Source of the DNA: Schmidtea polychroa
Lineage: Eukaryota
Assembly (NCBI GenBank): GCA_044892525.1
Contig: CM097885.1
Span: 34,970,001 to 35,034,000, forward strand
Direction: 5' to 3'
DNA: 64,000 nt
Shown: positions 1-61,057 of the stretch, piece after piece
How the letters are laid out: every line of letters begins with the position of its first letter
Numbering within the stretch: the first letter of the stretch is position 1
Translations under genes and position numbers: made by a program
Notes under the pieces: model-generated
What the model saw: the letters and a program-made list of their open reading frames with translations, nothing else
What the model was told of the DNA's origin: nothing
Databases searched by the model: none

Positions 1-1500
1 ATAAATTTTATCAAATACATGTAAATTTTTTTAAAAATTCTATGTGTGTGTTATTGGTAGAGTGTGAGTGTGTAAAATATGAAATTTTATCAAATACATG
101 TATAAATTTAGGTAAATTTTATGAAAAATCTATGTTTTTGTGTGTGTGTGTTACGGGTATAGTATGTGTGTGCGTAAATATATGAAATTTTATCAAATAC
201 ATGTAAATTTAGTTAAATTTTATGAAAAATCTATGTGTGTGTGTTACGGGTATAGAATGTGTGTGTAAAAATATGAAATTTTATCAAATACATGTAAATT
301 TCTTTAAAAAAATCTATATGTGTGTTTGTCCTATGGGGTAGAGAATTATTGTATATGTGTGTAAAAATTATATCAAATTTCTTTAAAATTTATGAAAAAT
401 CTATATATGTGTGTGTTATGGGGTAGAGTATGTGTGCGTAAAAAACTTTTATCAAATACATGTAAATTTCTTTCAAAAATCTATGTTTTCTGTGTGTGCT
501 ATGGTTAGAGAATTATTATGGGTGTATGTGTGTAAAAATATTAAATTTTATAAAAAGCATGTAAATTTCTTTCAAAAATCTATGTTTTCTGTGTGTGCTA
601 TGGTTAGAGAATTATTATGGGTGTATGTGTGTACAAATAATAAATTTTATAAAAAGCATGTAAATTTCTTTAAAAATCTATGTTTTCTGTGTGTGTGTGT
701 GGTATGGGTAATTATTATGGGTGTGTAAAAACTTTTATCAAATACATGTAAATTTCTTTAAAAAATCTATGTGTGTGCTATGGTTAGAGAATTATTATAT
801 ATGTATTTGTGTACAAATAATAAATTTTATAAAAATCATGTAAATTTCTTTAAAAAATCTATGTTTTCTGTGTGTGTGTGTGTGCTATGGGGTAGAGTAT
901 GTGTGTGTAAAAAACTTTTATGAAATACATATAAATTTCTTTAAAAAATCTATATGTGTGTTTGTCCTATGGGGTAGAGAATTATTGTATATGTGTGTAA
1001 AAATTATATCAAATTTCTTTAAAATTTATGAAAAATCTATATATGTGTGTGTTATGGAGTAGAGTATGTGTGTGTAAAAAACTTTTATCAAATACATGTA
1101 AATTTCTTTAAAAAATCTATGTTTTCTGTGTGTGTGTGTGTGCTATGGGGTAGAGTATGTGTGTGTAATAAACTTTTATGAAATACATATAAATTTCTTT
1201 AAAAAATCTATATGTGTGTTTGTCCTATGGGGTAGAGAATTATTGTATATGTGTGTAAAAATTATATCAAATTTCTTTAAAATTTATGAAAAATCTATAT
1301 ATGTGTGTGTTATGGAGTAGAGTATGTGTGTGTAAAAAACTTTTATCAAATACATGTAAATTTCTTTCAAAAATCTATGTTTTCTGTGTGTGTATGTGTG
1401 TGTGCTATGGGGTAGAAAATTATTGTGTGTGTATGTGTGTAAAAATATGAAACTTTATCAAATTTCTTTAAAATTTATGAAAAATCTATGTTTTTGTGTG
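1..1500. repeat. Minisatellite array, ~75-90 bp degenerate unit (TTTTATCAAATACATGTAAATTTCTTTAAAAAATCTATG...GTGTGTG...ATGGGGTAGAG)
   Basis: The unit recurs many times and runs off the left window edge. Its reverse complement is at ~8620-9900. Confidence 0.9.
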
Positions 1501-1646
1501 CATTGTACGTGTATTGCACATGCTTATTTTAACACGGGTATATATGCTTAATATGTGATTATACTCTGAGTTTATCCGACAAGATATTTTGTCCCCCTAT
1601 GGGTAATGTTCACACTCAACATGTTGCAAGTGTACTGCTCACAAGG

Positions 1647-1694
<48 letters not shown>

Positions 1695-1950
1695 CTCAGA
1701 GTTTATCCGACAAGATATTTAGTCCCCTTTATGAGTACTACTCGCAAAGGTACTGCTCACATGTCTCAAAGAGTATATATACTGACCAATCAAAATCAAG
1801 GAAGGGGTAGAAAAAATATATATTACTTGCAGTATTTTAAAACTTAAATATATTTTGACACCATTTTCAACATTTTCATCAATTATTATTATTTTTATTA
1901 TTGTTATTATTAACGCGCGGGGGATATTATTATTATTTATAATATTTTCA

Positions 1951-2125
<175 letters not shown>

Positions 2126-2467
2126 TTCATTATTATTATTATTATTCTTATTTTATTTTCAAAGTATTATTATAATTATTATTATTATATAAACTATGAG
2201 TTTATCCGACAACATATTTAGTCCCCGGATGGATAATGCTCATATACAACATGTCTCAAAGGGCATATTATTAAATTCTGACTAATCAATGAAGGGGTAG
2301 AACAAAAATATATTACGTTGTGGTATGTTAAAATCTTATTTTCAAAACATATTTTGACGCCATTTTCATTAGATGCAAGAACATTTTCATAATTATTTTC
2401 ATAATTTTTGCATCGATTTCATGATTTTCAACATTTTCATCATTTGCATGAATATATTATTTTCAAT

Positions 2468-2577
<110 letters not shown>

Positions 2578-2674
2578 TCGATGGGTTTTATGTAGGGTAT
2601 CCGAATGTTGTAATAAGCAATATTTTCATTATTTTTCATGATTATTTTCTTCAAAATTCTTATTTTATAAAGTA

Positions 2675-2718
2675 TGACTCATTCAAGGTCATATGACTCA
2701 TCAAGGTCACGTGACTCA
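2675..2718 (+). promoter_or_regulatory. Cluster of 3 AP-1 sites (TGACTCA) alternating with 2 TCAAGGTCA nuclear-receptor sites, upstream of the RING ORF
   Basis: TGACTCA at 2675, 2694, 2712. TCAAGGTCA at 2683, 2701. Mirrored at 7490-7533. The motifs are seen directly; function is inferred. Confidence 0.55.
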
Positions 2719-3063
2719 TCGATTACATTTTGAAAATTCTAATTTGATTGGTTATATCTATTGTGATAAATGTAAAAACAAAAGTAATTTAGTTATTACT
2801 GATGATTTCTACAAGTAAAACTGTTGAATATGATTGTGTAAATCACAAAATGTATTTGGTAACTTTATTATTTTATCAATTTTTTGTGATTTATAGCAAG
2901 GAACTCGAAATAATGAAAAATTAAGTCCATCCTATTCTGAAGATAATCGCTCATTGAAATTTTTAACAACACAGTTGAAGATTTTATAAATAATCATGAT
3001 GCTTACACTGATAAGAAAATCATAAATGTTTTAAAAATTTTCAAACATTCCTCTATTGAATAT

Positions 3064-3444
3064 TTGATTGATTTATTTAATTATGATAAATGTATTTTGA
3101 AGTTATCTAGTTATTTAATGTATTTTGAAAAAACAGTGGTAAACAACGATACACTGAATGAATACTTTTGGAGTTGCATGTATTTAAGATTGAAACCGGG
3201 ATATAGTAGATTGATTTATGAATGGATGGCGAAAGTCGATTTGATTGAAAATAAACTAACGGAAAAACTGAACGATGTTAAGAAAATGTATTTAACTTGT
3301 TCAATTTGTAAAGAAAATCAAGTTTCGGTTTTGTTTTTACCGTGTGGTCATGTAATTGTTTGTTCTAAGTGTCACGAGAAGAATGTTCGCAATTGTCAAG
3401 CCTGTTCAACTTTGATTAATGAATATCATACTATATATATGTAA
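3064..3444 (+). CDS. C-terminal C3HC4 RING (IAP/Mdm2-type RING-HC) protein, putative E3 ligase; true start uncertain (frame open from 2947, first ATG 3118, possibly spliced)
   Basis: CSIC-x11-CGH-x3-CSKC-x7-CQAC at the extreme C-terminus with VLFLPCGH, preceded by a coiled-coil-like stretch. Confidence 0.8.
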   Translation: MIDLFNYDKCILKLSSYLMYFEKTVVNNDTLNEYFWSCMYLRLKPGYSRLIYEWMAKVDLIENKLTEKLNDVKKMYLTCSICKENQVSVLFLPCGHVIVCSKCHEKNVRNCQACSTLINEYHTIYM

Positions 3445-4495
3445 TTTCTCAATACAAATTTCTAGTGTCTTTTTTAATCATGCACATTTATTGCTATTTT
3501 GTATATTTTTTAGTTAATTTATAAATATTATCTGACATTTTGATGTGTCAATGCAAATATATATACAACAAATTAATCAATAAAGATTGTAAGTTCTTTT
3601 ATATACTCAGAGTTTATCCGACAAGATATTTTGTCCCCCTATGGGTATTTGTCGTAAAGGTACTGGTCGCAAGGGTAATTAAGGTACATGTATATATATA
3701 TATAAATTCTTAGGTAATTTAGTGAGAAATATTTGGGTAATATTTTAAATGTAACTTTATTCTTATTTCGAACGATAAATTTATTGATTAACTTTGTCAT
3801 TTAAAAGGTAATTTGGTAAAGTATTTTCATAGGTAATTTATTCATCTAATGTTCATTACAATAGTTAACTTCGTGAGAAATACATGGTCATTAATAACAA
3901 CATTGATTCTTTGGAGTAAAAATCTTTGTTCGAGTCATAATAGAAATATGATCATCTGGTTAACCAATTAAGGTGTTTATTAGTTAGAATTCTAATTTAT
4001 TATCATTGAGTATAATATATCTTTGTGAGAATAAGTTAAGATTTTTGAGCAACATTTACCAAAACATGAATATTTTGTGCGAAGAATATTGGTTAAATAT
4101 GTCATTTAAAATAATATTTTCAGACAATAATTAATAAATTCATTGGTTAATTTATATCTTTGTGAGAAATACATGATCATTTATTGACAATTCATTAATA
4201 AATTTGGTATAAATTCTTTATCATTTGGAGTAATTTTTGTCAAATTTCTATTTTTTATTATTATAGAAACATGATCGTTTGGTTAATTTACATGGAATAA
4301 TATGATGAATTTCAAGTGAAATAAAGTTTTCAGTTAATTAATATATCAAATTAATTTAAAATTGAGGATACACTGATGAAAATTCTAAACAAATATTTGC
4401 ATCCACACATATATTTGAACATCACATAATAAAAACTCATTAATTTAAAATACTGCAACGTAAAATATTGCGTAATAAATGATACTGAATCGCTC

Positions 4496-4554
<59 letters not shown>

Positions 4555-5654
4555 ATTGAAAATAATAATAATATTACTTTGAAAAATAATAATATGACAT
4601 TGAAAATAATAATAATATTACTTTGAAAAATAATAATATGACATTGATGACATTTGAAAATAAAATAAGAATTTTGAAGAAAATAATCATGAAAATATTG
4701 AAAATCGTAAAAATATCTTTTGGAAATACTTTGAAAATAATAATACTATGAACTTGTATTTGAAAATAATATACATTTAGCGACCAATACCCATAGAGGG
4801 ACAAAATATCTTGTCGGATAAACTCAGACTATATATATAATTAAATCAGTCAAATCAAGAACTTTGATAAAATTATACTTAGGTGGTAAGAATATATGAA
4901 ATATATGATAAAAAAAAATTGAAAGGTTTTTGATGAAAATAAGAATAGATATATATTTAAAATATATTTTACTAAAACTTGAATATTTAACAGAAGAAAT
5001 ATTAGTAGGAAAATAAATCGGGGGCTGTTGATTGTTCAAAGGATTATGTTATAGCTAAATTATTACATCAAAGTTGATTGAAAAATAATTCTGTTAATAA
5101 AGTTTGGCTGAGTTCTTTATTTTACACTAAATTTCGAAATTAATATTAGTCACATTCCTAAATAATTGAAATGTAACGTAACATTTTAAAAATACAATTA
5201 TATACTTTTTACTAAATTTAATTGTCTGTAATTTTCCTTTAACCTTCTGTAGCAATTAATTCTATCTCAATTAAGATTTACACTCTTTATTAATTTATCA
5301 TATATTTCAATGAATATTATTACCACTTGATTATAATTTTATCAAAGTTCTTGATTTGACTGATTTAATTATATATATAGTCTGAGTTTATCCGACAAGA
5401 TATTTTGTCCCTCTATGGGTATTGGTCGCTAAATGTATATTATTTTCAAATACAAGTTCATAGTATTATTATTTTCAAAGTATTTCCAAAAGATATTTTT
5501 ACGATTTTCAATATTTTCATGATTATTTTCTTCAAAATTCTTATTTTATTTTCAAATGTCATCAATGTCATATTATTATTTTTCAAAGTAATATTATTAT
5601 TATTTTCAATGTCATATTATTATTTTTCAAAGTAATATTATTATTATTTTCAAT

Positions 5655-5710
<56 letters not shown>

Positions 5711-6763
5711 GAGCGATTCAGTATCATTTATTACGCAATATTTTACGTTGCAGTATTTTAAATTAATGAGTTTTTATTATGTGATGTTCAAATATATGTG
5801 TGGATGCAAATATTTGTTTAGAATTTTCATCAGTGTATCCTCAATTTTAAATTAATTTGATATATTAATTAACTGAAAACTTTATTTCACTTGAAATTCA
5901 TCATATTATTCCATGTAAATTAACCAAACGATCATGTTTCTATAATAATAAAAAATAGAAATTTGACAAAAATTACTCCAAATGATAAAGAATTTATACC
6001 AAATTTATTAATGAATTGTCAATAAATGATCATGTATTTCTCACAAAGATATAAATTAACCAATGAATTTATTAATTATTGTCTGAAAATATTATTTTAA
6101 ATGACATATTTAACCAATATTCTTCGCACAAAATATTCATGTTTTGGTAAATGTTGCTCAAAAATCTTAACTTATTCTCACAAAGATATATTATACTCAA
6201 TGATAATAAATTAGAATTCTAACTAATAAACACCTTAATTGGTTAACCAGATGATCATATTTCTATTATGACTCGAACAAAGATTTTTACTCCAAAGAAT
6301 CAATGTTGTTATTAATGACCATGTATTTCTCACGAAGTTAACTATTGTAATGAACATTAGATGAATAAATTACCTATGAAAATACTTTACCAAATTACCT
6401 TTTAAATGACAAAGTTAATCAATAAATTTATCGTTCGAAATAAGAATAAAGTTACATTTAAAATATTACCCAAATATTTCTCACTAAATTACCTAAGAAT
6501 TTATATATATATATATACATGTGCCTTAATTACCCTTGCGACCAGTACCTTTACGACAAATACCCATAGGGGGACAAAATATCTTGTCGGATAAACTCTG
6601 AGTATATAAAAGAACTTACAATCTTTATTGATTAATTTGTTGTATATATATTTGCATTGACACATCAAAATGTCAGATAATATTTATAAATTAACTAAAA
6701 AATATACAAAATAGCAATAAATGTGCATGATTAAAAAAGACACTAGAAATTTGTATTGAGAAA

Positions 6764-7144
6764 TTACATATATATAGTATGATATTCATTAATCAAAGTT
6801 GAACAGGCTTGAAAATTGCGAACATTCTTCTCGTGACACTTAGAACAAACAATTACATGACCACACGGTAAAAACAAAACCGAAACTTGATTTTCTTTAC
6901 AAATTGAACAAGTTAAATACATTTTCTTAACATCGTTCAGTTTTTCCGTTAGTTTATTTTCAATCAAATCGACTTTCGCCATCCATTCATAAATCAATCT
7001 ACTATATCCCGGTTTCAATCTTAAATACATGCAACTCCAAAAGTATTCATTCAGTGTATCGTTGTTTACCACTGTTTTTTCAAAATACATTAAATAACTA
7101 GATAACTTCAAAATACATTTATCATAATTAAATAAATCAATCAA
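6764..7144 (-). CDS. Mirror copy of the RING protein with the 7th zinc ligand changed Cys->Phe
   Basis: Identical translation except RNCQAC->RNFQAC (single base, 3395 vs 6813). Confidence 0.75.
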   Translation of the reverse strand: MIDLFNYDKCILKLSSYLMYFEKTVVNNDTLNEYFWSCMYLRLKPGYSRLIYEWMAKVDLIENKLTEKLNDVKKMYLTCSICKENQVSVLFLPCGHVIVCSKCHEKNVRNFQACSTLINEYHTIYM

Positions 7145-7630
7145 ATATTCAATAGAGGAATGTTTGAAAATTTTTAAAACATTTATGATTTTCTTATCAG
7201 TGTAAGCATCATGATTATTTATAAAATCTTCAACTGTGTTGTTAAAAATTTCAATGAGCGATTATCTTCAGAATAGGATGGACTTAATTTTTCATTATTT
7301 CGAGTTCCTTGCTATAAATCACAAAAAATTGATAAAATAATAAAGTTACCAAATACATTTTGTGATTTACACAATCATATTCAACAGTTTTACTTGTAGA
7401 AATCATCAGTAATAACTAAATTACTTTTGTTTTTACATTTATCACAATAGATATAGCCAATCAAATTAGAATTTTCAAAATGTAATCGATGAGTCACGTG
7501 ACCTTGATGAGTCATATGACCTTGAATGAGTCATACTTTATAAAATAAGAATTTTGAAGAAAATAATCATGAAAAATAATGAAAATATTGCTTATTACAA
7601 CATTCGGATACCCTACATAAAACCCATCGA

Positions 7631-7701
<71 letters not shown>

Positions 7702-8043
7702 ATTGAAAATAATATATTCATGCAAATGATGAAAATGTTGAAAATCATGAAATCGATGCAAAAATTATGAAAATAATTATGAAAATGTTCTTGCATCTAA
7801 TGAAAATGGCGTCAAAATATGTTTTGAAAATAAGATTTTAACATACCACAACGTAATATATTTTTGTTCTACCCCTTCATTGATTAGTCAGAATTTAATA
7901 ATATGCCCTTTGAGACATGTTGTATATGAGCATTATCCATCCGGGGACTAAATATGTTGTCGGATAAACTCATAGTTTATATAATAATAATAATTATAAT
8001 AATACTTTGAAAATAAAATAAGAATAATAATAATAATAATGAA

Positions 8044-8167
<124 letters not shown>

Positions 8168-8424
8168 TGAAAATATTATAAATAATAATAATATCCCCCG
8201 CGCGTTAATAATAACAATAATAAAAATAATAATAATTGATGAAAATGTTGAAAATGGTGTCAAAATATATTTAAGTTTTAAAATACTGCAACGTAATATA
8301 TATTTTTTCTACCCCTTCCTTGATTTTGATTGGTCAGTATATATACTCTTTGAGACATGTGAGCAGTACCTTTGCGAGTAGTACTCATAAAGGGGACTAA
8401 ATATTTTGTCGGATAGACTAGGAG

Positions 8425-8472
<48 letters not shown>

Positions 8473-8619
8473 CCTTGTGAGCAGTACACTTGCAACATGT
8501 TGAGTGTGAACATTACCCATAGGGGGACAAAATATCTTGTCGGATAAACTCAGAGTATAATCACATATTAAGCATATATACCCGTGTTAAAATAAGCATG
8601 TGCAATACACGTACAATGC

Positions 8620-9900
8620 ACACAAAAACATAGATTTTTCATAAATTTTAAAGAAATTTGATAAAGTTTCATATTTTTACACACATACACACACAATAAT
8701 TCTCTACCCCATAGCACACACACATACACACACAGAAAACATAGATTTTTGAAAGAAATTTACATGTATTTGATAAAAGTTTTTTACACACACATACTCT
8801 ACTCCATAACACACACATATATAGATTTTTCATAAATTTTAAAGAAATTTGATATAATTTTTACACACATATACAATAATTCTCTACCCCATAGGACAAA
8901 CACACATATAGATTTTTTAAAGAAATTTATATGTATTTCATAAAAGTTTTTTACACACACATACTCTACCCCATACCACACACACACACACAGAAAACAT
9001 AGATTTTTAAAGAAATTTACATGAATTTTATAAAATTTATTATTTGTACACACATAAACCCATAATAATTCTCTAACCATAGCACACACATGGATTTTTG
9101 AAAGAAATTTACATGTATTTGATAAAAGTTTTTTACACACACACACATACTCTACTCTATAGCACACACACATAGATTTTTTAAAGAAATCTACATGTAT
9201 TTGATAAAAGTTTTTTTACACACACATACTCTACCCCATAGCACACACACACAGAAAACATAGATTTTTTAAAGAAATTTACATGATTTTTATAAAATTT
9301 ATTATTTGTACACAAATACACATATAATAATTCTCTAACCATAGCACACACATAGATTTTTTAAAGAAATTTACATGTATTTGATAAAAGTTTTTTTACA
9401 CACCCATAATAATTATCCATACCACACACACACAGAAACCATAGATTTTTAAAGAAATTTACATGATTTTTATAAAATTTATTATTTGTACACACATACA
9501 CCCATAATAATTCTCTAACCATAGCACACACAGAAAACATAGATTTTTGAAAGAAATTTACATGTATTTGATAAAATTTAATATTTTTACACACACACAC
9601 ATACTCTACTCTATAGCACACACACATAGATTTTTTAAAGAAATCTACATGTATTTGATAAAAGTTTTTTACACACACATACTCTACCCCATAACACACA
9701 GAGATTTTTCATAAATTTTTCATAAATTTGATATAATTTTCACACACATACAATAATTCTCTACCCCATAGGACAAACACACATATAGATTTTTTAAAGA
9801 AATTTACATGTATTTGATAAAATTTTTATACACACACACAGAAAACATAGATTTTTCATAAAATTTAACTAAATTTACATGTATTTGATAAAAATTATTA
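8620..9900. repeat. Minisatellite array, reverse complement of 1-1500
   Basis: Repeated CATAGATTTTTTAAAGAAATTTACATGTATTTGATAAAA...CTCTACCCCAT units. Confidence 0.9.
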
Positions 9901-10157
9901 TTTTTGGCTATTGCACACACAATCACTCAGAAATATTTTTCTACCCTTAAGGTGTGTAATACTAGCATGTATACTTTGGAATAGACTTGTGTGTGTAAAT
10001 ATTTTAGGTTTATCTCTAATACTTGCAAAAATAATAATGGATTGAGTATGTGTGTAAAATTAATATCAAGGTATGACTAATAAATTTGCAATACACTTGC
10101 ATAATTAACAAAGACTTTGCAATAAAAGTGCATGATTAACAAAGACATGAATATAAT

Positions 10158-10247
<90 letters not shown>

Positions 10248-10342
10248 TAATAAATCCCATGGGCGCGTCATTCTGAAAACAGATGTCTTTGTTTTAAAAA
10301 GTGATGAGTCATTGTCTTTGTTATAAAAAGTCAGCGATGACT

Positions 10343-10760
10343 ACCTTTGTAGTACCTTTTGTTTGATATGTATATTATAAGGTTTGAAAAATTTGACCCT
10401 TGGACCATCATACTCATCTTTGTATTACCTTTTGTTTGATATGTATATTATAAAGTTCGAAAGTTTTTGACCCTTTGAAGGTTATTGACCCACCATATAC
10501 CTTCGACCCTTGGACCATCATACTCATCTTTGTATTACCTTTTGTTTGATATGTATATTATAAGGTTTTCAAAATTTGAACCTTGGACTCTTTAAACTTG
10601 GACCATCATACTCATTTTTGAATTTCCTTTTGTTTGATATATATATTATAAGGTTTGAAAAAATTCGAAGGTTTATGACCCTTTGAAGGTTATACCATTC
10701 GAAGATATGACCATTAGATAGACCTCTGAAATACCTTTCGAATTATAAGGTTTGAAAAGA
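10343..10760. repeat. Degenerate tandem repeat, ~4 copies of 73-110 bp
   Basis: CCTTTTGTTTGATATGTATATTATAAGG at ~10355, 10428, 10538, 10626, with TTGGACCATCATACTCAT between copies. Confidence 0.8.
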
Positions 10761-11488
10761 TTTTTTGAGGGACCCACCATTTTATTATATTGATTTGCAT
10801 TTAAATTATTTGATATATATATATTTTATTATTATTTTCAAAATAATATTATTATTTTTCAAAGTAATACTATTTTTTATTATTATTTTATTATAATTAT
10901 TATTAATTAATTAATTTTATTATTAATTTTATTATTATTAATTAATTAATTTTATTATTATTCACAAAAATATTATTATTATAAAGACATGTTGAACTCA
11001 TGTCACGTGTAAATTAAACAAAGACAATGAGTAACAAAGACATTATTTGTTACTATGTGAGTCATTGATGACTCATCATTTTAGTACAAAGCATAGAGTA
11101 TGTGTGTGTATATTTCTCTATCCTATCTGTATTCTGATTGGATAGACGTTACATATACTCTATGATTTTTTCAAAATGCTCGTGGATGAAAAAGTAAATT
11201 TTAATTATTATGTTTTTAATTATAATGTTTTTTAGAAATTATGAAATCAATTTATGAATTTTTTATGAAGAATATGTTTTTATGGAGAAAATTATATCAG
11301 AAATGGTAATGTTTTTTATTACTTTGTTATTATTATTTTATTTTTTATTATTATTTTTTATTACTTTGAAATAATATTTTGAAATAATATTAATTTGATA
11401 ATAATAATAGTAATAATAATAATTATAATAAAATAATAATATTACATTGAAAATAATAATAATAATGATAATAATAATAATAATAATG

Positions 11489-11522
<34 letters not shown>

Positions 11523-11559
11523 TAATAATAATAATTTTGATAATAACATCTTTGTTCTA

Positions 11560-12430
11560 GTGGAGTCCTGAGTCATCGTTCTAATCGTGTGTGATAGTCT
11601 TTGTCTTAAAAATAAATGATTGGTCTTTGTTCAAAAAAGTCATCGATGAGTCATACAAAGGGGGGGGGGATAGTGCACAAAAAAAATAACTTCTTATTTA
11701 AACTATGAGTCATCGATGAGTCTTTGTCTATATGTCTTTGTTTAAATGTATTTATTTAAATATTTGTTTACATGTCATTATTTAAATATTTGATTAAATG
11801 TCTTTGTTTAAATATTTGTTTAAATGTATTTATTTAAATATTTGTTTACATGTCATTGTTTAAATATTTGATTAAATGTCTTTGTTTAAAAAATGATGAG
11901 TCATACATACTTTAATAATGAGTCAGTTGGCTTTGTTCCAAAAATGACGAGTCATATGACCTTGTTAATAAAAATAGAATGACCTTGATGAGTCATCTTC
12001 TTTGTTTAAAAATGATGAGTCATCGGGCAGGATCAACGGTGATGAATCATATGTACTTTAATGATGAGTCATCGTCTTTGTTTAAAAATGATGAGTCATG
12101 TGACCTTGTTACTAAAAATAGAATGACCTTGACCTATTTACTAAAAATAGAATGACCTTGATGAGTCATCGATGACGTCATGTGACCTTGTTGCTAAAAA
12201 TAGAATGACCTTGGCCTAGTTGCCATGGGGACCACCGTTGCTATGGATGAGTCATGCGACCTTGATCTAGTTACCATGGTTACCACGGTTGCTATGGGTG
12301 AGTCATATGACCTTGATCCAGTTACCACGGTTGCTATGGATGAGTCATCGATGAGTCATATGTCTTTGTTTTGCGCTGAGTCATCGGGGGGGGGGGTAGT
12401 GCAAAAAAATGACAAAAAACGATGAGTCAT
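11560..12430. promoter_or_regulatory. Dense array of AP-1 (TGAGTCA) and TGACCTTG sites with two G-run/TAGTGCA blocks; probable subterminal region of a mobile element
   Basis: About 15 TGAGTCA, one TGACGTCA (~12173) and about 8 TGACCTTG, counted by eye. G-run followed by TAGTGCA and an A-run at ~11660 and ~12387. Confidence 0.6.
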
Positions 12431-12452
12431 GGAGCACACTTCTCTCTACTCT
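12431..12452 (-). mobile_element. Candidate Polinton/Maverick-type terminus (5'-AGAGTAGAGAGAAGTGTGCTCC on minus strand)
   Basis: Sequence character changes abruptly after ...TCTCTCTACTCT. Polinton ends characteristically begin AG with short simple repeats. The partner end is not in the window. Confidence 0.4.
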
Positions 12453-13149
12453 TGATATATGATAACTTTAGATAAAACGTTTGTCAGGCAAAAAATCTAG
12501 AAATTATAATCACACTGTTATGATATATTCAAATTTATAAGAGTGTCTAAAGTTTATGGTCTAGGCACTTAGGAATCTTTAAGGGCTTAGGAAGAAAAAT
12601 AGTGCAAAAGGATAAAAAGAATAACCATTTACCAAAAAATAGTCTAGGCTCAATTGATGAGTACCAACCCCGTAGAATTCATCCTTCTTCGGATATCCAC
12701 TGTGAGATTCACAAGTTTTTTGAAAAATTTCACAAAATCGACAATATTTTCTTTTGATCTCTTGCTTATTCATTCTTGTCACCTATATTTGTCCACTTAC
12801 TGATTTGATGAAAAAGTGAAAAAAGTATATTTTTTTATTTGTCAAAATTTTTAACCATACTCTGTATAAAGCTCCAAATCTTTTACGATAAATTCATTTT
12901 TAATTTCAATCAAATAGAATTTATTTATCACAAAATCAATTACAAACACCAACTCCTTTTATCAGTCACAATTAGAATATTTAGAGTCAAAATATTAAAA
13001 AATAATAAATTTATAATAAATAATTTGAAATTTTATTGTAAATTTGAGAAAATTCTAATTTTGATAACTAAAATTTCTTTAAATTTAAACCAGTCAACAT
13101 ATTTATGATAATTATTATTACTTCATCATGTTGTCTACCAGTATAAATT

Positions 13150-13700
13150 TTGAACTTGAACACTGCTATTTTCTTTTTTATTTGTTCTATTTCAGCATTA
13201 TCTTTTTGCCACTTATAATCTTCAGCTTTTTTCATCGTGTTTATTCTTCGGGTTTTCATTTTTTCCACTTTCGCATCTTCGTGTGCCAATAAACATTATG
13301 TGCATCCTTGACAACATATCTGCATTTGCATGATCCGTACCTTTTCGATACTCTATTTTAATATCCAGACTACTGAGGTAGCTAATCCATGTCTGAAATT
13401 GCGCTATTACTGGTTTCTTTGTGGATAACATAAACGTGATGGCTTTATGGTCCGTTCTCAAAATGAACCGTTTTCCATATAAATAATGATTGAAGTGTTG
13501 ACAAAAATAATAGATTGCCAGCAACTCTTTCCTTGTTATGCAATATCCCTTTTCATGATTGCTCATTGCATGAGAACCGTATGCTATAACCTTTTCGCAC
13601 CCGTTGTCGTCTTTCTATGATAATACTGCTCCAATCGTGTCAAAACTCGCATCAGTATTCAGAATGAATTCTCTTTCGAAATCTGGAAACCCTAGAATTT
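13150..13700 (-). mobile_element. Ty3/Gypsy pol fragment (RNase H), degenerate
   Basis: LGFPDFEREFILNTDASFDTIGAVLS*...IAYGSHAMSNHEKGYCITRKELLAIYYF...FILRTDHKAI...HANADMLSR, with a stop and a frameshift. Confidence 0.9.
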
Positions 13701-13972
13701 CAACTTTTACGAGTTTTAAAAGTTTGAAAAATTTTGAAACTTTTGTAATTTTTAAAGTTTGAATATAGAAAACAGAATTTTGTAAATTTTTAGCGAAATT
13801 AATATTAAAAAAATGAATGACTTAGTTAATTAGTTTGTTTAAAAAAAGAGCAATATGTATTGATTTAGTTTGATTTCAATTCTACCCGAAGATGAAAATT
13901 ATTCTGTCGAAATATATTGTAGTAATAATGATAATAATAATAATGATAATAATAATAATGATAATAATAATG

Positions 13973-15229
<1,257 letters not shown>

Positions 15230-15235
15230 TAATAA

Positions 15236-17177
<1,942 letters not shown>

Positions 17178-17261
17178 GTGAGATAAAATTTATTAATTGG
17201 TTAATTTATAATAAATAATAATTTCCAAACTGAGATAATATCAAAAAGATTTCCTGCTCAC

Positions 17262-17875
17262 CTGCTACTATAATACATCTCTCCAATAAATTAATCTGTT
17301 TTGCTTTTTGAGATATTTGTACGAAAGCCCCAGTTGTTTCTTTGATATCTTTAATAAATGTTCCTGACTTGCCAATAATCAATCCCGCCGTGCTGTTTGG
17401 AACTAAAATTTTCACTTGTCTTTGACGTTCATTTAATTCCTTCAATCCGTGATTATGTTGTAACATATTTCTATTTAGTTTATCATTAATTTTTTTCATA
17501 ATATAACTATGCATGGCAATAATTCCATCAACTGCACCAATAATTAAACAAACGCGTTCTTTTGTACCTATATAAAATGAAATTATATTAATTTATTGTT
17601 TCCAAATTTAACCGGGATAAAAGTCAGTGGATTTAGAAATTTTAACTTTTGTACAAGTTTCATTCTGCATATGATTAATTGATTCTCCTCTTTTACCAAT
17701 AATTGCTCCTGCTGAGACAGATGGAACAAGAATTTTGAAATAAACATTGTTAACTCCTATTGTGTTAAAATATATATATATTTATTTAATAAAGTAATAA
17801 CAACAATAAAATACTTGATGAAGAACAGAAATTATTTGGCAAAACTTTATTTGGAATATTTGAGTCTTCATTCAT
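17262..17875 (-). CDS. nova: Nova/Pasilla-like KH-domain splicing regulator, first three exons (17875-17815, 17756-17613, 17567-~17262): KH1 and most of KH2
   Basis: Spliced translation YFKILVPSVSAGAIIGKRGESI...KVKISKSTDFYPGTKERVCLI...QVKILVPNSTAGLIIGKSGTFIK...GAFVQISQK...ERCIIVAG. GT-AG introns of 58 and 45 nt with consistent phase. Confidence 0.88.
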
Positions 17876-18797: not shown

Positions 18798-18930
18798 TCA
18801 TTATATCTTTTTGTTGAGGTCTCGATATTCGGGAGCACTCAACCTACTGGTTCTTATATATGTATAAATATATCAAAAGACAAAGTAATTTCTAAAACTT
18901 TTATTATAAAGAAAAATTTACCAAATATAA
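18798..18930. repeat. 133-bp direct repeat, left copy, containing a hairpin (18813-18843)
   Basis: Matches 23068-23200 at an offset of exactly 4270 with 3 mismatches. Confidence 0.95.
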
Positions 18931-18932
18931 AG

Positions 18933-19844
18933 TTAAATAAAGTTATTAAATTTATCTTTTGAAATTATTCCTTGTTTTAACAAATCTTTAGAAATCTTTA
19001 AAATATCAGAATCTAAATTATTATGTCCTGCTTTTTTAGCTGCTAATAGTTTTCTTAATTCAATAAAAAGGTTGATTGGGTTTGGTTTAACCCTTATACC
19101 ATCACCTTCTTTAACAACATAACCCTTTTCATTTCTATCTAAATATTTCTTTTAATCTTGAATGTGTTTTGCTTTTGAACTAGCTTTTATTGATCTTATA
19201 AAATTTAAATATTTTTTAATTTCTTCAACATCATCTGAAGGATATCCACAAATTAATCTATAAAAATCATCTCTAAATTCAAAGTCTAAATATTCATTAT
19301 TATAAACATTTTGTGAATGAATATGTGATTTATTTTCTGGAGTTGTATATAAAGTAAAGTTTTGTTTATTGATTGTTATTATTGAATATCCTTCAGAATT
19401 AATATGAAATGTGGGTTTAATTGAATCACTTAAACCTTCTCTAATTTTAGGATTAACTTTGAGAGGTTTTGTTTTTAAAAACATTTCTTCTTCTTCCACA
19501 TTAGAGGTTCTTCTGCGTTTTCTTTGATTTCTTTCAGAATGACTTTCAGGACGACTTTCAGGATGATTTTCAGGATGATTTTCAGTGGATTCTTTCTCCC
19601 ACTCCAATTCTTTTATTTTTTGTTTTTTATCTTCTAACTCTTTAAATTTTGCTTGCTCATTTAATCCTTTTATAGCTTTAATTGTTGGTCCTTGTTGTTT
19701 TTGGATTACCTCATTTAATATTATAGATTCAGCATGTTGAGTTGTATCTTTTTTATGATACTTGTTTTGTTCTGATTGTAATTTTTTTAAAAGTGCTAAT
19801 CTTTCTTTTAATGGTATCAAAAATGGTATCATGGTTCCTTCCAA
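18933..19844 (-). pseudogene. Polinton/Maverick PZ-like protein with one premature stop (19152-19154)
   Basis: Reading through the TAA gives 72 more codons, ...EGDGIRVKPNPINLFIELRKLLAAKKAGHNNLDSDILKISKDLLKQGII..., matching the conserved PZ C-terminal motif. Confidence 0.75.
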
Positions 19845-20404
19845 GGTTTTAAATATAATCCTTTACCATTTTTAGTTTTACAAAGGCATCCATTCTTTAA
19901 AGATTTACACATTTTTTTTAAATCATCTTTATCTTTTGAAGATAAAGATTCAGATGATGAAATTTGATTTTTTAAAAAATCATTTAAACCGCGGCCTTTA
20001 TAAGGATCAAGATAGAGACCCTTTCCAACGGAGGAACTCCCCTGAGACTTTTGACCTTCGGACACTTTCTGATATGGATTAAGATAGAGACCTTTTCCTT
20101 TAGCTTGCCCTACCTTCATTTTCTCGATTTCAGTTTGTAATTTTTCTTTTTCTAGGTCTGTCTTTTGAGATTCTTTAGCTTTTTGAACTGTAGTTGCAAT
20201 TCCTCCAGCTATTCCAGCAGCACCTGATAGTCCGGCAATGATTGCAGGTATTAAAGCAGCTAATGGAAGAATGCCACCTTCTTTAATCTTCGCTCTAACT
20301 TGTTCTTTTACATGTTTTCCAATAAAATATTTTTTACCATCAATTACTACTGATTTATTTTTATTTGAATTTATTAATTCTTGCAAAGATTCTTCAGTTG
20401 TCAT
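19829..20404 (-). CDS. Polinton virion core protein resembling adenovirus pX (Mu precursor)
   Basis: EGGILPLAALIPAIIAGLSGAAGIAGGIA resembles the adenovirus pX C-terminus (GGILPLLIPLIAAAIGAVPGIA). Three GKGLYLxP repeats. Confidence 0.75.
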   Translation of the reverse strand: MTTEESLQELINSNKNKSVVIDGKKYFIGKHVKEQVRAKIKEGGILPLAALIPAIIAGLSGAAGIAGGIATTVQKAKESQKTDLEKEKLQTEIEKMKVGQAKGKGLYLNPYQKVSEGQKSQGSSSVGKGLYLDPYKGRGLNDFLKNQISSSESLSSKDKDDLKKMCKSLKNGCLCKTKNGKGLYLKPWKEP

Positions 20405-20419
20405 TTTTAAATAAATAAA

Positions 20420-21214
20420 ATGGATATTTGGAAACCAATTTTAAATAGACATAAGAGTAAATTTAATAATAAAGTATTTCCTGATAATTTTAGATTATTA
20501 ATTGTTGGTTCTTCTGGATGTGGAAAGAATGTACTTGTTTTGAAAATGTTGCTTGAAGATGATTTTTTAGATTATAATAATTTAATCTTTTATTCTACAA
20601 CTATAAACCAACCAGAATTACAACTTTTGAAATGTGGATTTGAAAATAAATTAACTAAAAAAGCAATAATTGATATTTTTAAAAATCAACATAGATGTCC
20701 TGAAGAAGTTTTTCAACCTTGTGATATGGTTGATTGGTATAAGGAAAAGATTTTAGAATTAGATATTAGTAATAAAAATGATTATATTTGTGAAGATCAG
20801 GGGCAGGAGGCAATTCAAGTTTTATTCTCTAATAAACCTGAAGATGTTTTACATTGTGATTTACTTCCTAAAGATAAAAAGAATCTAGTTATATTTGATG
20901 ATGTTGTCAACATGAAAAATCTAGAGATTCAAAAGAGTTACTTTACACGAGGTCGACATAGTAATTGTAATGTTATTTATATATCTCAAACTTATTATGC
21001 TTTAGATAAAAACTCTATAAGAAATAATTCTAATTGTTTTATATTTTTTAAATTAGATCGCCGTGATAAGAATATGATTTATAATGACTTATTTTCAAAT
21101 GTTGAACCTGATAAGAATATGTTTGATATGTTTGTTGATAATCATTGGAAAGAAAAATATAATTATATTTATTTGGATAGAGAAGAAGCTGAAATATGGA
21201 AAAGTTTGTTTTAG
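20420..21214 (+). CDS. A32/FtsK-HerA-type genome packaging ATPase of Polinton/Maverick
   Basis: Walker A LIVGSSGCGKN (atypical N), Walker B LVIFDD, FTRGRHSNCNVIYISQ, IRNN motifs. Confidence 0.92.
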   Translation: MDIWKPILNRHKSKFNNKVFPDNFRLLIVGSSGCGKNVLVLKMLLEDDFLDYNNLIFYSTTINQPELQLLKCGFENKLTKKAIIDIFKNQHRCPEEVFQPCDMVDWYKEKILELDISNKNDYICEDQGQEAIQVLFSNKPEDVLHCDLLPKDKKNLVIFDDVVNMKNLEIQKSYFTRGRHSNCNVIYISQTYYALDKNSIRNNSNCFIFFKLDRRDKNMIYNDLFSNVEPDKNMFDMFVDNHWKEKYNYIYLDREEAEIWKSLF

Positions 21215-21225
21215 GGCTTGTCGAC

Positions 21226-21510
21226 TTAAAAATCTGTTTTCTGTAGTTCATTATTATAAAATCTGCCTAATATTTTTTCATTATTTAAATCAATGATGCT
21301 ATATGTTATTGGAGTTGTATAATGTATTTTATTTATAATAAAAATTTCATTTGTCCATTTTGCTGTGAATCCTTTTTCAAATTTATTTTTATATTTAAAT
21401 ATTCTTACTCGGTCACCAATTTTAAACTTTGGTTTTTCAATAACATCATTTTCAACAGGATTTATGAGTTCCAAAGGATTCAAGGAAGCATTTAAAGGTG
21501 TCTTTTTTTT
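21226..21510 (-). pseudogene. C-terminal fragment of Polinton retroviral-like integrase
   Basis: KTPLNAS...KPKFKIGDRVRIFKYKNKFEKGFTAKWTNEIFII...PITYSIIDLNNEKILGRFYNNELQK. The catalytic core is absent. Confidence 0.85.
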
Positions 21511-21524
21511 GAATAAACAAGTTG

Positions 21525-22382
21525 TTATTTTTTTGGAAAGATATATCTTGGTCGGTATGCTAAATTTGCTACCTTTATGGAATATGTTGAACGCTCTGTC
21601 ATACTAAATTCACTACAGATTCTATTTAAATAATTTACATTTATAGATTTGTTGGAATTTAATCTTTCAAGGAGTTTAATCTCAGAATGTGGATTTAATG
21701 TCCATTCAGGTATATGCAATTCAAGTGTTGATATTTTTAATTTAGCTGTTGTATCCTTATCTCCATAGAACAATCTTTTATCACCTTCTACTCTATTACA
21801 AACTAATTCTATAAAAACATTATGAAGTATACGATTATAGTTTTGAAGGAATCCAAACAAGTATTTTAATTCAAAATAACCTTCAAATTTTTTAGATTTA
21901 TAAAGTTCAGCTCTTTTATAGTAACCATAATAACCATCTTTCTCTAAATCTCCTTTATTAACATCAGGAATCCAGCCTCTTAATTCACCATATTCATTTT
22001 TATAATCACAACCAGTTAAAATAAAATTTAACATTGTAGAATATACTCCCGGATGCAAAACAGTTTCAATTTCTGATGATCCTAGTTTTAATCTCATGTT
22101 GGAAAATAAATTTGGAAAGAAATTATTTTCTAGGGTTATATCTTTGTTTGCTTCAATTTCTAATTCGATTTTATAATATAATTTGGCATTACAAATATCT
22201 ATAGGGTTTGATGTTTGAAGAAATTGAAAAACTATATCACCATTACGATTTAAATTTGAAATAGATCCGGCAGTAGGACAAATTTTTAAAATGTCAATCT
22301 TTTTAATATCATGTATGAATTCTTTATTATAGTCAAGATTTAATTTATTTTTATTTTGGATTTTAAGATTTATATTATTCAT
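21525..22382 (-). pseudogene. Polinton double-jelly-roll major capsid protein, C-terminally truncated (285 aa)
   Basis: NLNRNGDIVF, LENNFFPNLFSNMRLKLGSSEIE..PG..STM, LKYLFGFLQNYNRIL..IELVCNR, LKISTLELHIP, RPRYI. Typical MCP N-terminal portion in Polinton gene context. Confidence 0.78.
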
Positions 22383-22415
22383 TTTCTAAATAAGAATATA
22401 GCTTATAAAACACTC

Positions 22416-22897
22416 CTAAGGAATTTTAAAAAAATAAAAGAGAGCCTTGAAGACCTCCGCAATCAGTTCCTCAGCTTTTTTCTTAACTTCTCTCTCCATT
22501 AATTCTTCTAGGACTTTATTCATCAAAGCTCTTGTTTTTTCTTTCGCCTTTTTTCTTCATCCTTTAGAATTATTTCCTTACAAACTTTTTTCATTAGGCT
22601 TTCATGTCGGTATTTGTAATTTTCATCTTCAGTTTTTTTTAATTTTTCTTCTAGAAGCTTTATCTTCTTTTCATATTCCTCTTCCTGTTTTTTTAATAAG
22701 TTCTTAAGCTCTGTGATCTTCGTACTAAACTCTGTAATAGAATCTGTACTAAACTCTGTAATAGACTCTGTAATAGACTCTGTAAAAGATTCCTTTTTTT
22801 TAGGAATAGGTTTTACAGAGTTTCTTACAGAGTCTTTCTTCTTAGTACTTAAATTCTTACTTCCTTTTTCGGGATTTTTCGGATTTTTTTCAGCCAT
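22416..22897 (-). pseudogene. Lys/Glu-rich coiled-coil ORF of the Polinton cassette, frameshifted near 22545
   Basis: ORF 22897-22523 with SITE repeats. An alternate frame continues EKTRALMNKVLEELMEREVKKKAEELIAEVFK to TAG at 22416. Confidence 0.5.
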
Positions 22898-23067
22898 TTT
22901 CTATAAAAAAATTATATTGGATTTATGTTTTACCTGATGTGGTTCTTCAGATTTTCGGACTTACATACGCTTTCTTCAGATTTACATACATTTTCTTCAG
23001 ATTTTCGGACTTGCGGTTTTAGGGGTATGAATTCGGGTTGCGCTATATGGATGTTTGCTTACACTAC

Positions 23068-23200
23068 TCATTATATCTTTTTGTTGAGGTCTCCATATTC
23101 GGGAGCACTCAACCTACTGGTTCTTATATATGTATAAATATATCAAAAGACAAAGTAATTTCTAAAACTTTTATTATAAAGAAAGATTTACCCAATATAA
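23068..23200. repeat. 133-bp direct repeat, right copy, containing a hairpin (23083-23113)
   Basis: GTTGAGGTCTCC-ATATTCG-GGAGCACTCAAC: 12-bp stem with 2 mismatches and a 7-nt loop. Confidence 0.95.
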
Positions 23201-23941
23201 TGTATTCTGCTAGATTACAAAATCCTTTGAATATCCAACCGAATATGCGTGTATGTACTGTGTGAATGTTGTGTTTCTCTTGCTATGTTGCGTGTAGGCT
23301 TTTGAACGTTTTTGTTTGTCTGTTCGATTTTATCACTTATAAGGATTAACCTTTTTAGTATGTTATCGCGGTTAAAATTTTGAGCGAAAAAAATGAATTT
23401 TACCTCGCTATTTATACTATTTTCGTGTCTATGAAATTAAATTGATATATTTTTATAAGTATACTTAAGAAAATAATATATTTTATAAACATGCTTAAAG
23501 AATTAAGTATTAATTATTGTTATGTGAAAAATTCAAAGTATTAAATAAAGTGTTAATTATTGTTATTATTACATATGTCCTAAAAATTCTAAAATTATTA
23601 TTATTGAATTATTGTTATTTCAAAATTATGTTTTAAAATTATTATTATTGAATTACTGTTATTTCAAAATATCTAAAGTTGTTATTATTACACATGTCCT
23701 AAAAATTCTAAAATTATTGAATCATATGTCTTTCAAAAGTGTTCAAAATTATTACTATTAAATTGCCACTTATATTCTTATAATTTACGTGAATCATATG
23801 TCTTTCAAAATTTTAAAGTGTTCAAAATTATTATTATTCTTATAATTTACGATCATATGTTTTCATATGTTTTCTGAAATTTTATAATTTTAAATACTAA
23901 TTAAGATTATTTATTGAAATTTTATAATTTTAAATAATAAT

Positions 23942-26607
23942 TGTAGTCAAACCAATTAAATCATTATAAATATTAAATTAATATTTATATTAATAATAAC
24001 ATATTTAAAAACTTTGTTTTAATATGTTATTAATTTGATAAAAGTAGAATTTGAAAAAGTCGTCTTACTTATTAATAATAATGCAAATCAATGTAGAAGA
24101 CAACATTGGTGTCAGAAGTGTGGCTCAAGAAAGTAGTTACATTCAAATGAAAATTCCAACATTTTTCGACAATGTAGCAGTTTGGTTTCAACAAGTGGAC
24201 GCAGCATTGGAACTGGCCTCATTCAGAAACGAAAAACCAAATATTTTCACTTGTTAACCAGCTTACCATCTCGCGTTCTCGAAGAGTACTCGGATTTAAT
24301 GGATCCACATATCAAGCAGCCATATTCAGCACTTAAAGAAGCAATTATTAATGACTCAAAAGGATCAACGGAGGCAGAAAACAAACTTTTACAGAAACAG
24401 GAACTTGGGGATCGGAAACCAAGCCAACTCCTTAGAGAATTAAAAAGAAACTATAAAATAATGGAACCCAATGGTGACCCAGAAACGAGCAAAATTCTCA
24501 GACATCAGTTCATTAACTCCATGCAAGTTCACATTCAATACCTTCTAATATCGAGCAACGTTGGCATTGATGAGTTGGCCAACATCGCCAACTTGCACGT
24601 AAGCATCAATGATCAGCATATCTCACCGGTGGGAAGTCAAAATATTGCCGGAAACTTCCATCAGCTTGCAATAGAGAACCTGCAAGATCAAATCAATGTC
24701 ATAAGGGCAAACGAAAGCTCTACTCGAAAAGAACGTCATTCGAGTGAAGAAACAATATGTTATTATTCACAGACGATTCCGAATAAAAGCCAGGAAATGC
24801 CAAAAACCGTGTTGCTGGTCTGATTCAGTTAAGTCGGGAAAAGGCCAAGGATCTCGTTAATGTCGACGACAGAGATCCAATGCTCAACTCAACAGTCGAC
24901 AAAGATTAATGCAATTTTCACTGTTCCAGTCCTCTATGACAATAAATCAAATGATTTTCTCATTGATTCTGGGGCAGATGTCACCGTTATCCCAACAAAA
25001 ATATTTAAACCCGATTCCAGAATTCACCGATCAGACTCATAGCGGCTAACAACTGTAGCATAAAAGTACATGGCTCAAAAGTTCTACACTTTACGATTGA
25101 AGGTCAAAAGCAGCATTTCTAGATTTCTAGTGGATTGCAAAAATGCTAAAATCTTCATCGGAAATACAGCTATCACAAATGTTAATAAAAGAAGCAATTC
25201 AGTCAGCTCTGAGCATGCAATGGCAATCGAAACAACTGGGCCACCAATTGCGCAGTCAGTAATTCGATACCTTGATCAAAAAGGGAATCCTAAGGGAAAG
25301 TAAGAGTGACTGGGCGTCACCATTGGTAATAGTTAAGAAGAAAGATGGATCAATACGCCGATGCGGTGCCTACAGACTCCTGAACTCAGTCACGAAAGTC
25401 GACAAATATCCTCTGCCCAGAATAAGCGACATCTTAGATCAACTCGGGGGAAGCAAAATATTTTCAACGATCGATCTGGAAAAGGCATATCACCAAATCC
25501 CAATTGAAGCAAACGACATCCCACAAACAGCAATAATTACACCTTTTGGACTTTACGAATACCTCAAAATGCCTTTTGGACTGAGGAACGCATCACAAAC
25601 TTTCCAAAGATTCATGGACAAGCTTCTACGTCCATACATGATGTTCTCCAGAGCGTACATCGATGACATAATCATTTTCTTTAAATCGAATGAATATCAT
25701 GAAAAACATTTGCAAACAATCGAAAAAGTTCTAAAAGATGCACATTTATCAATAAATAAAGATAAAAGCTGCTTGGCTAAAAATCAGGTTAACTTTCTTG
25801 GATTTCACATTTCAGACTCAGGAATCTCACCCCAAACCGATAAGATTCAAGCAATCACCTCCTGTTCAAGGCCAGACGATGCTAAGGCACTGAGACGATT
25901 TATTGGAATGGTAACATTCTATCACTGGCTAATACTGAATTTGGCGGATATAATGGCTCCGTTACATGAACTGACATCAAACGGAGCAAAAGACAAACGT
26001 AAAAATATCTGGAAAGATCAACACTCGCAAGCCTTTGAAACGGCAAAGAAAAAACTGCAAGAAATCACTGAAATGATCCCTCCAGATTCGCAACGCACAT
26101 TCATCGTATGCACGGATGCATCGGACATTGGAATTGGTGCAAGCCTTAATCACAGAACGGCAGAAGGTAAACTTACACCAATCAGTTTTTTCTCTAGAAA
26201 GCTCAACAAAACTGAACAAAGATATTCAACATTTGACCGAGAACTATTAGCTGCCTATTTAGCCATCAAAAATTTCAAACATCACCTGGACGGCAATACA
26301 TTCGAATTACTAACCGATCACAAGTCATTGGTATACAATGAAAGACCCATCCAATAGACAATGGCGATGGATCCAGTTCATAAACGAATTTGATGCAAAG
26401 ATAATTCACATCAAAGGGAAAGACAACATTGTCGCAGATTTCCTATCAAGACAATCTAATTCAGACAACAATACTCTCAATATTGTTGAGACTGTGCCGA
26501 TGACAAAAAATGAAATAATTAATCAACAAAGACAACAATCATTCGCCCAAACCTTGAAGCCAAATCACTCATTTAAAATAAGTATAGATGATGACGGAAT
26601 CCTAGTG
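23942..26607 (+). mobile_element. Ty3/Gypsy retrotransposon, 5' portion (short LTR ~23942-24105, tRNA-Leu PBS 24107-24120, gag-PR-RT-RNaseH), frameshifted, integrase and 3' LTR missing
   Basis: TGTAGTC...GACAACA then TGGTGTCAGAAGTG. gag LGDRKPSQLL, protease FLIDSGAD, RT WASPLVIV/MPFGLRNA/YIDD, RNase H TDASDIGIGA/YSTFDRELLA. Confidence 0.93.

Positions 26608-40757: not shown

Positions 40758-61057
<20,300 letters not shown>

Follow-up and report, generated by a model that had tools for sequence, protein, structure and literature searches.

Clustered host-factor-like motifs at a high-copy Polinton-type end in Schmidtea polychroa

Introduction

Polinton/Maverick elements are among the described systems closest to the locus reported here. 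According to the accessible portion of one survey, Maverick particles have not been observed to date (PMC8097293), and the main text of the same paper has 0 occurrences of the term 'transcription factor'. Outside this family, the host-factor sites at adenovirus ends aid both replication and transcription, as the accessible part of PMC2685984 describes.

Here we analyse a 64,000-nucleotide stretch of S. polychroa DNA (assembly GCA_044892525.1, contig CM097885.1, positions 34,970,001 to 35,034,000 of the forward strand), hereafter the window, to which all coordinates refer. It contains an element end whose terminus, like those of Mavericks, is of the AG/AGT type and closes on ACT-3′ on the right (PMC8097293, accessible portion). 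Further likenesses are the many insertions with one boundary and the ATPase and capsid genes nearby in the genome. The element's estimated length of ~14.7 kb falls within the 12.7–24.6 kb given for Mavericks, whereas its arms, at least 4.9 kb long (~7 kb should the fold-back extend to the terminus), contrast with vertebrate Maverick TIRs of 46–1,447 bp in the accessible portions of both sources (PMC8097293, PMC6431247). Unlike Polintons and Mavericks, the element has no core genes in its visible part. Its last kilobase is packed with words that match the binding consensuses of host factors, and the questions considered below are what these words are and what they may do. The features are collected in Table 1.

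Table 1. Coordinates of the element, its terminal array and its RING genes in the window
Feature	Position	Strand	Details
Fold-back left arm	1..4895	+	palindrome; runs off the window
RING gene-proximal AP-1/receptor cluster, left-arm mirror copy	2673..2720	-	3 AP-1 + 2 receptor words
RING ORF, left arm	2947..3444	+	PF13920, E 3e-10 (Pfam run on left-arm copy)
Non-palindromic centre	4896..5313	.	418 bp
Fold-back right arm	5314..10250	-	includes ~90-bp satellite (8702-9836); leads into terminal array
RING ORF, right arm	6764..7261	-	C3HC4_3 type; towards centre; 88% to P0001
RING gene-proximal AP-1/receptor cluster, right arm	7488..7535	+	3 + 2 words, 2-bp spacer; ~230 bp upstream of RING ORF
Inner end part	10285..11076	+	two small AP-1/CTTTGT clusters, 10285-10340 and 11018-11076; families D3, D10
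Four 81-bp repeats	10319-10670	+	inner part of end
(AAT)n microsatellite	11383..11546	+	between inner and outer array; second at 10153-10253
Dense subterminal motif array	11546..12450	+	16 TGAGTCA, 1 TGACGTCA, 8 TGACCTTG among its words
26-bp tandem block	11711..11890	+	TGTTTAC/TRTTTRY words; family D1
49-bp module	11940..12214	+	4 copies (71-100% to reference); family D4
~51-bp module	12207..12348	+	receptor word, RFX-type words, AP-1; period 51, 2.4 copies; families D7, D13, D16
Element terminus	12435..12450	-	5′-AGTAGAGAGAAGTGTG read into element; loose contigs, depth drop
Predicted target-site duplication CTTGAT	12451..12456	+	opening six bases of the low-depth flank

A shared boundary with a Polinton-type terminus

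Contigs from four of 22 public runs (X1, X5, X7 and X8) were aligned to positions 11550–13900. Part of 11550–12452 is present in 15 of the 22 runs, and six contain half or more of its words. None of the runs containing it is catalogued as RNA, and coverage of the array by X7, perhaps an RNA run, is left out of account. The copies share a sharp boundary at 12450 (...CTCTCTACT): 35 X1 contigs are loose behind it with a consensus agreement of 0.43, so they run into many differing flanks. Across this point summed depth in X1 falls from ~2×10^5 (386,276 in the bin 12340–12418) to 103 in 12498–12734, and in X5 from 61,280 to 46 over the same two intervals. Summed depth is no copy number and is taken only as a contrast of about three orders of magnitude, which we read as hundreds to a few thousand element ends. 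The junction itself is real, since one X1 contig (record 3) bridges it from 12426 to 12785, although X1 may be the sample from which the window derives. A sister variant of the end, leaving the alignment at 12384, also stops on CTACT (nine X1 and 11 X5 contigs). Self-comparison finds a single end of this kind within the 64-kb window. One X5 flank contig (12446–13099) matches from 12446 only, with its first five letters different and 13 differences in all; it represents another allele, perhaps a site without the insertion or one where a sister end has inserted at that place.

The original prediction had put the boundary at 12452, with TGATAT as the 6-bp target-site duplication. A sharp boundary common to many copies does exist, but it lies 2 bp away, and the duplication that follows from 12450 is CTTGAT instead. 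Read on the minus strand from 12450, the terminus is 5′-AGTAGAGAG, beginning AGTAG; its terminal hexamer, AGTAGA, mixes the (AGT)2 and (AG)3 types and is neither exactly. The proposal of a Polinton-type end has fared better. An AG(T)-type terminal motif stands at a boundary common to many insertions, the sister end stops on CTACT as well, and Polinton A32 ATPase and double-jelly-roll capsid genes are found in the genome, outside the element. These observations support the view that a high-copy element of Polinton/Maverick type has its right end at 12450.

A dense array of candidate host-factor sites

The region 10250–12452 holds 19 of the window's 33 TGA[CG]TCA (AP-1) words, its only CRE (TGACGTCA) and eight of its 14 TGACCTTG/CAAGGTCA receptor words, which confirms the earlier counts of roughly 19 TGASTCA, one CRE and about eight TGACCTTG. 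Means over 300 dinucleotide shuffles were 0.22 for AP-1 (maximum 2), 0.02 for the CRE (maximum 1) and 0.05 for the receptor words (maximum 1). The last 0.9 kb (11540–12452) contains 16 of the 19 AP-1 words, the CRE and all eight receptor words. Two mirror clusters in the arms (2675–2718 and 7490–7533) contribute a further six AP-1 and four receptor words, and the other 51.5 kb of the window has eight and two, respectively.

Further words crowd the array: three MEF2-type words (CTAAAAATAG), nine RFX half-sites (RGYAAC), 12 HMG-type words (CTTTGT) and four ATCGAT. It also includes one AGGTCAAGGTCA direct repeat (12124) and two poly-G modules (11660, 12386), and the inverted half-site pattern GTCAYRTGAC is found at four junctions. 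None of 500 shuffles reached the array's counts of AP-1, YCAAGGYCR, MEF2 (CTAWWWWTAG), RGYAAC, CTTTGT, ATCGAT or TCAYRTGA; the shuffles leave duplication unmodelled. The forkhead-like TGTTTAC/TRTTTRY words of the 26-bp tandem block are not clearly enriched in 11711–11890, their counts being reached by seven and two of 500 shuffles.

The consensuses used for AP-1, TGA(G/C)TCA, and for CRE, LRH-1 and RFX1 were taken from the accessible part of PMC7077322. The RFX1 consensus (GTNRCC(0-3N)RGYAAC) is matched in full just once in the window, by a 14-bp site at 12270. The LRH-1 consensus YCAAGGYCR has six matches in the array, five of them among the eight TGACCTTG words and one more at 12257. The other three TGACCTTG words read ACAAGGTCA, so that only five of the eight words assigned earlier to NR5A/ERR-type receptors fit the published consensus. 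Clustered matches to putative host-factor sites exceed chance, and the word classes are best explained as AP-1/CRE sites, NR5A/ERR/GCNF-type half-sites, and MEF2, RFX and HMG-box words.

The words follow a grammar. All five AP-1/CRE-to-receptor pairs in the array have a 2-bp spacer, as do all seven plus-strand pairs when the right-arm RING cluster is included; spacing from receptor word to AP-1 is 1 bp in three of four cases. MEF2-, RFX- and HMG-type words are placed between the pairs, and 18 of the 19 AP-1 words share one orientation. The 49-bp module has a set order: AP-1 or CRE, 2 bp, a receptor word, an overlapping RFX-half/MEF2 word and a second receptor word. Since the array is built of duplicated modules, its sites are not independent, and the counts and Fisher tests overstate the independence of words that are copies of each other. 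Element copies gain and lose modules: the 15 joints listed skip 31–338 bp or go back, and several stand at or beside AP-1 words. Growth through duplication and slippage at shared words is the best explanation of this structure. Special folding was not found in the last 251 nt (z -0.79), and Rfam gave 0 matches in 1–13000.

Further inward, the 81-bp repeats (10319–10762) contain TATTATAAGGTTT and degenerate GACCCTT words. This block is a possible core promoter between array and body.

Constraint on the words

In 23 sequences that nearly match an AP-1 11-mer, six of 161 core positions are mismatched, as against 23 of 92 at the edges (Fisher p 7e-7; leaving out the last position, p 0.008), in a test that was seeded on the AP-1 word itself and on word copies that are related. 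In the flanks of the word, from the third base outwards, agreement is down to ~40–50% at most positions. Among the copy-to-copy differences listed within the element, a best-supported subset of 12 to which one contig contributed several, 11 lie outside word cores, which make up 39% of the bases. The twelfth (11948) concerns an AP-1 word that is present in most copies. Between the first two copies of the 49-bp module, two of three differences fall in words. Slippage at shared words would likewise keep the words and shuffle their flanks. On the whole, the evidence on selection points both ways and leans towards a function of the words.

The fold-back element and its RING gene

The end probably belongs to a ~14.7-kb fold-back, a non-autonomous Polinton derivative with one RING gene in each arm. 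The palindrome is seen for 1–4895 against 5314–~10000, with 16 substitutions across left-arm positions 1100–4895. The mirror position of 12450 would lie ~2.3 kb to the left of the window, whence the length. ORF and Pfam searches of 1–12450 found one RING ORF per arm, directed at the centre in both, and no polymerase, integrase, ATPase or capsid ORF.

The contigs were aligned to the right of 11550 only, so the join between array and fold-back rests on contiguity and on short shared pieces. One such piece, 10119–10147, matches 3466–3494 (27 of 29 positions), which follows immediately after the RING stop codon. Others are 10837–10868, shared with 4573–4604, and 10041–10069, shared with the 90-bp satellite; strings of 17–24 bp with AP-1 and receptor words are also common to the terminal region and the arms. 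From these we infer that the terminal array is part of the fold-back. A 31-bp tandem duplication (10085–10146) adjoins the 29-bp piece at 10119–10147.

The first in-frame ATG of the left-arm RING ORF comes only at 3118. In tblastn, P0001 aligns in one frame, which gives no sign of a frameshift. The family of the RING protein is small; in metagenome-type collections, its relatives are one five-member cluster (88%) and one protein (45%). Five hits include three more proteins with the N-domain and RING, the other two being a fragment and a repeat artefact. The ESM Atlas returned generic RING clusters only, with recognition below threshold.

The same grammar had been claimed upstream of both RING ORFs. 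The clusters are real; as mirror copies within the palindrome, however, the two amount to a single cluster. Their surroundings share just 17–24 bp with the array.

Within the fold-back arms, GAGTTTATCCGAC (with ACAAGATATTT...CCCC) recurs nine times between 1568 and 8539, often after TATATA runs and with no Rfam match. It could be a private promoter or a small-RNA unit.

Neighbouring sequence

A separate Polinton remnant (18798–24100) lies further along the window, with an A32-type ATPase (20420–21214), a double-jelly-roll capsid fragment (21525–22382) and a small ORF with a weak Adeno_PX hit (19829–20404). It sits inside a 136-bp direct repeat (18798–18933 and 23068–23203, 97%). Degenerate repeats at 23500–24050 carry GAATCATATGTCTT words that resemble the AP-1/CTTTGT module of the array, and may be the worn end of another family.

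Between the fold-back and this remnant, a 1.2-kb unit is tandemly duplicated at 13920–16494 (98.7% over 1370 bp), with (AAT)n runs at its bounds and an adjoining high-copy Gypsy RNase H fragment (13222–13614). Two KH-domain exons, presumably NOVA-like, follow on the minus strand (17209–17781), separated by a very short intron and running into a long (AAT)n. Beyond the remnant, nested transposon remnants occur within 24137–57269: a Gypsy at 24.1–26.6 kb, interrupted by a hAT/SPIN-type element (~26.6–29.6 kb), a piggyBac-type ORF of 581 aa (36787–38532) and an unclassified transposase-like ORF of 774 aa (54945–57269). The KH-domain exons and the hAT, piggyBac-type and Gypsy-type remnants fit an AT-rich animal as host.

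Proposed function and alternatives

The reading that we favour, by a modest margin over even chances, is that the array would bind host factors and serve as an enhancer, an auxiliary origin or both. An integrase would recognise the AGTAG end, as family knowledge suggests. Host bZIP proteins and partner factors would occupy the array, thereby opening the end, and the array would then drive inward transcription of the element's genes, aid the start of protein-primed replication, or do both. The host-factor sites of adenovirus terminal repeats offer a model for such a role; to our knowledge, adenoviruses themselves do not integrate. Judged by its position, the 48-bp cluster, a miniature copy of the array's grammar, would play the part of a proximal element for the RING gene. 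Factor binding, activity and the responding signal are all predictions drawn from the letters of the array. An enhancer within the element end is plausible, and this reading gains from the additional MEF2-, RFX- and HMG-type words and from the way mismatches spare the AP-1 core. That wounding induces the array is rather doubtful; the stress or wound reading derives from what AP-1 is known to do.

The array might instead be a neutral modular minisatellite, in which an ancestral unit with AP-1-like and AGGTCA-like words was amplified by slippage in a terminal repeat, and the words persist as recombination microhomologies between modules, not through protein binding. The single orientation of the AP-1 words, the nested repeat families, the many joints at which copies jump forward or backward between modules (several of them lie at AP-1 words or next to them) and the richness of the element in other satellites all suit such an origin. 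It accounts poorly for the presence of at least four unrelated words that match factor consensuses, including a 14-bp RFX1 site that occurs once in 64 kb, for the recurrence of the 2-bp-spaced pair in a promoter-like position before the RING gene amid unrelated surroundings, and for mismatches that avoid the core; we regard it as unlikely. A somewhat smaller chance still attaches to the idea that the words are subterminal sites for element-encoded proteins (an integrase, a terminal protein or polymerase, or an accessory factor of a helper Polinton), their likeness to host motifs being secondary. Subterminal repeats of cut-and-paste transposons bind element-encoded proteins, and the position in the last kilobase, the polarised orientation and the GTCAYRTGAC inverted half-sites at four junctions are as expected of such sites. 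Several unrelated host-consensus words would, however, be superfluous for one element protein, and the same words stand 4.9 kb inside, before a gene and far from any end.

A narrower version of the enhancer reading casts the array specifically as a wound or stress switch that the host has co-opted genome-wide. In its combination of AP-1, CRE and MEF2 words the array does look like viral switches that can be induced, the EBV BZLF1 promoter being one (PMC8706188, accessible portion). Numerous ends would also spread clusters widely. Against this, receptor, RFX and HMG words suggest germ line, stem cells or ciliated cells and fit a cell type as readily as injury, and repeats of this kind are commonly silenced. 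We consider this version very unlikely.

Returning to the favoured reading of a host-factor-binding enhancer or origin, a bolder extension is that Polinton-family ends form a reactivation switch under host-signal control, an enhancer-origin of AP-1/CRE, nuclear-receptor, MEF2 and RFX words shared by a gene-poor fold-back satellite that retained a single cargo gene, a RING ligase controlled by a miniature version of the switch. We hold it to be improbable. If true, an injury or a stem- or germ-cell signal would activate the elements, the host genome would have been sown with inducible enhancers by hundreds to thousands of ends, and the switch would supply a first testable trigger of Polinton activity. 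A 0.9-kb end composed of recognisable host-factor words in any case lends itself to reporter and chromatin assays, which could show the time and place of activity of a Polinton family and whether its many ends act as host enhancers.

Searches for relatives and comparison with known systems

Matches elsewhere to the end 16-mer (14 loci), to the end 19-mer (three, in metagenome contigs) and to the composite word (two) were single matches without a motif cluster and were set aside as chance. Queries of viral contigs with the Polinton ATPase and capsid gave 26 and 3 candidates, respectively, none of which was confirmed, and no phage match was found. An alignment of the ATPase yielded 12 distant loci of at least 601 candidates in viral contigs. 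None of the 12 has more than one AP-1 word per kb, and terminal repeats were absent in all three that were checked, so these loci provide no test of how general the array is in animal Polintons and are poor controls. A sigma-70 scan (25 versus 19.3) is uninformative for an animal.

Within the open-licence literature, subscription journals being outside the scope, no paper was found that describes a dense array for several factors at a Polinton end. Viral ends and enhancers with arrays of host-factor sites are already familiar, and the principle is not new. A related Polinton case is the C. elegans TIR at eri-6/7, where terminal repeats are tied to host gene regulation and carry putative factor sites; its role is in trans-splicing via direct repeats, and the accessible part of PMC11414722 describes no dense multi-factor array there. 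In the EBV BZLF1 promoter Zp, MEF2 and AP-1/CREB-like sites form an inducible reactivation switch. Zp is a herpesvirus promoter with a known target gene, whereas any inducibility of the array is hypothetical (PMC8706188, accessible portion). HBV enhancers I and II offer the same set of word types, AP-1/ATF, RFX1 and LRH-1 (NR5A2) all being reported to act there; HBV is an unrelated virus with compact single sites, whereas the array is known from sequence matches (PMC7077322, as far as accessible). A working model for the arrangement is the adenovirus ITR, which combines an end of the protein-primed type with adjacent host-factor sites for NFI, Oct-1, Sp1 and ATF (TGACGT). There, according to the accessible part of PMC2685984, ~0.2 kb hold a few single sites for other factors, whereas the array described here extends over 0.9–2.2 kb with dozens of duplicated sites.
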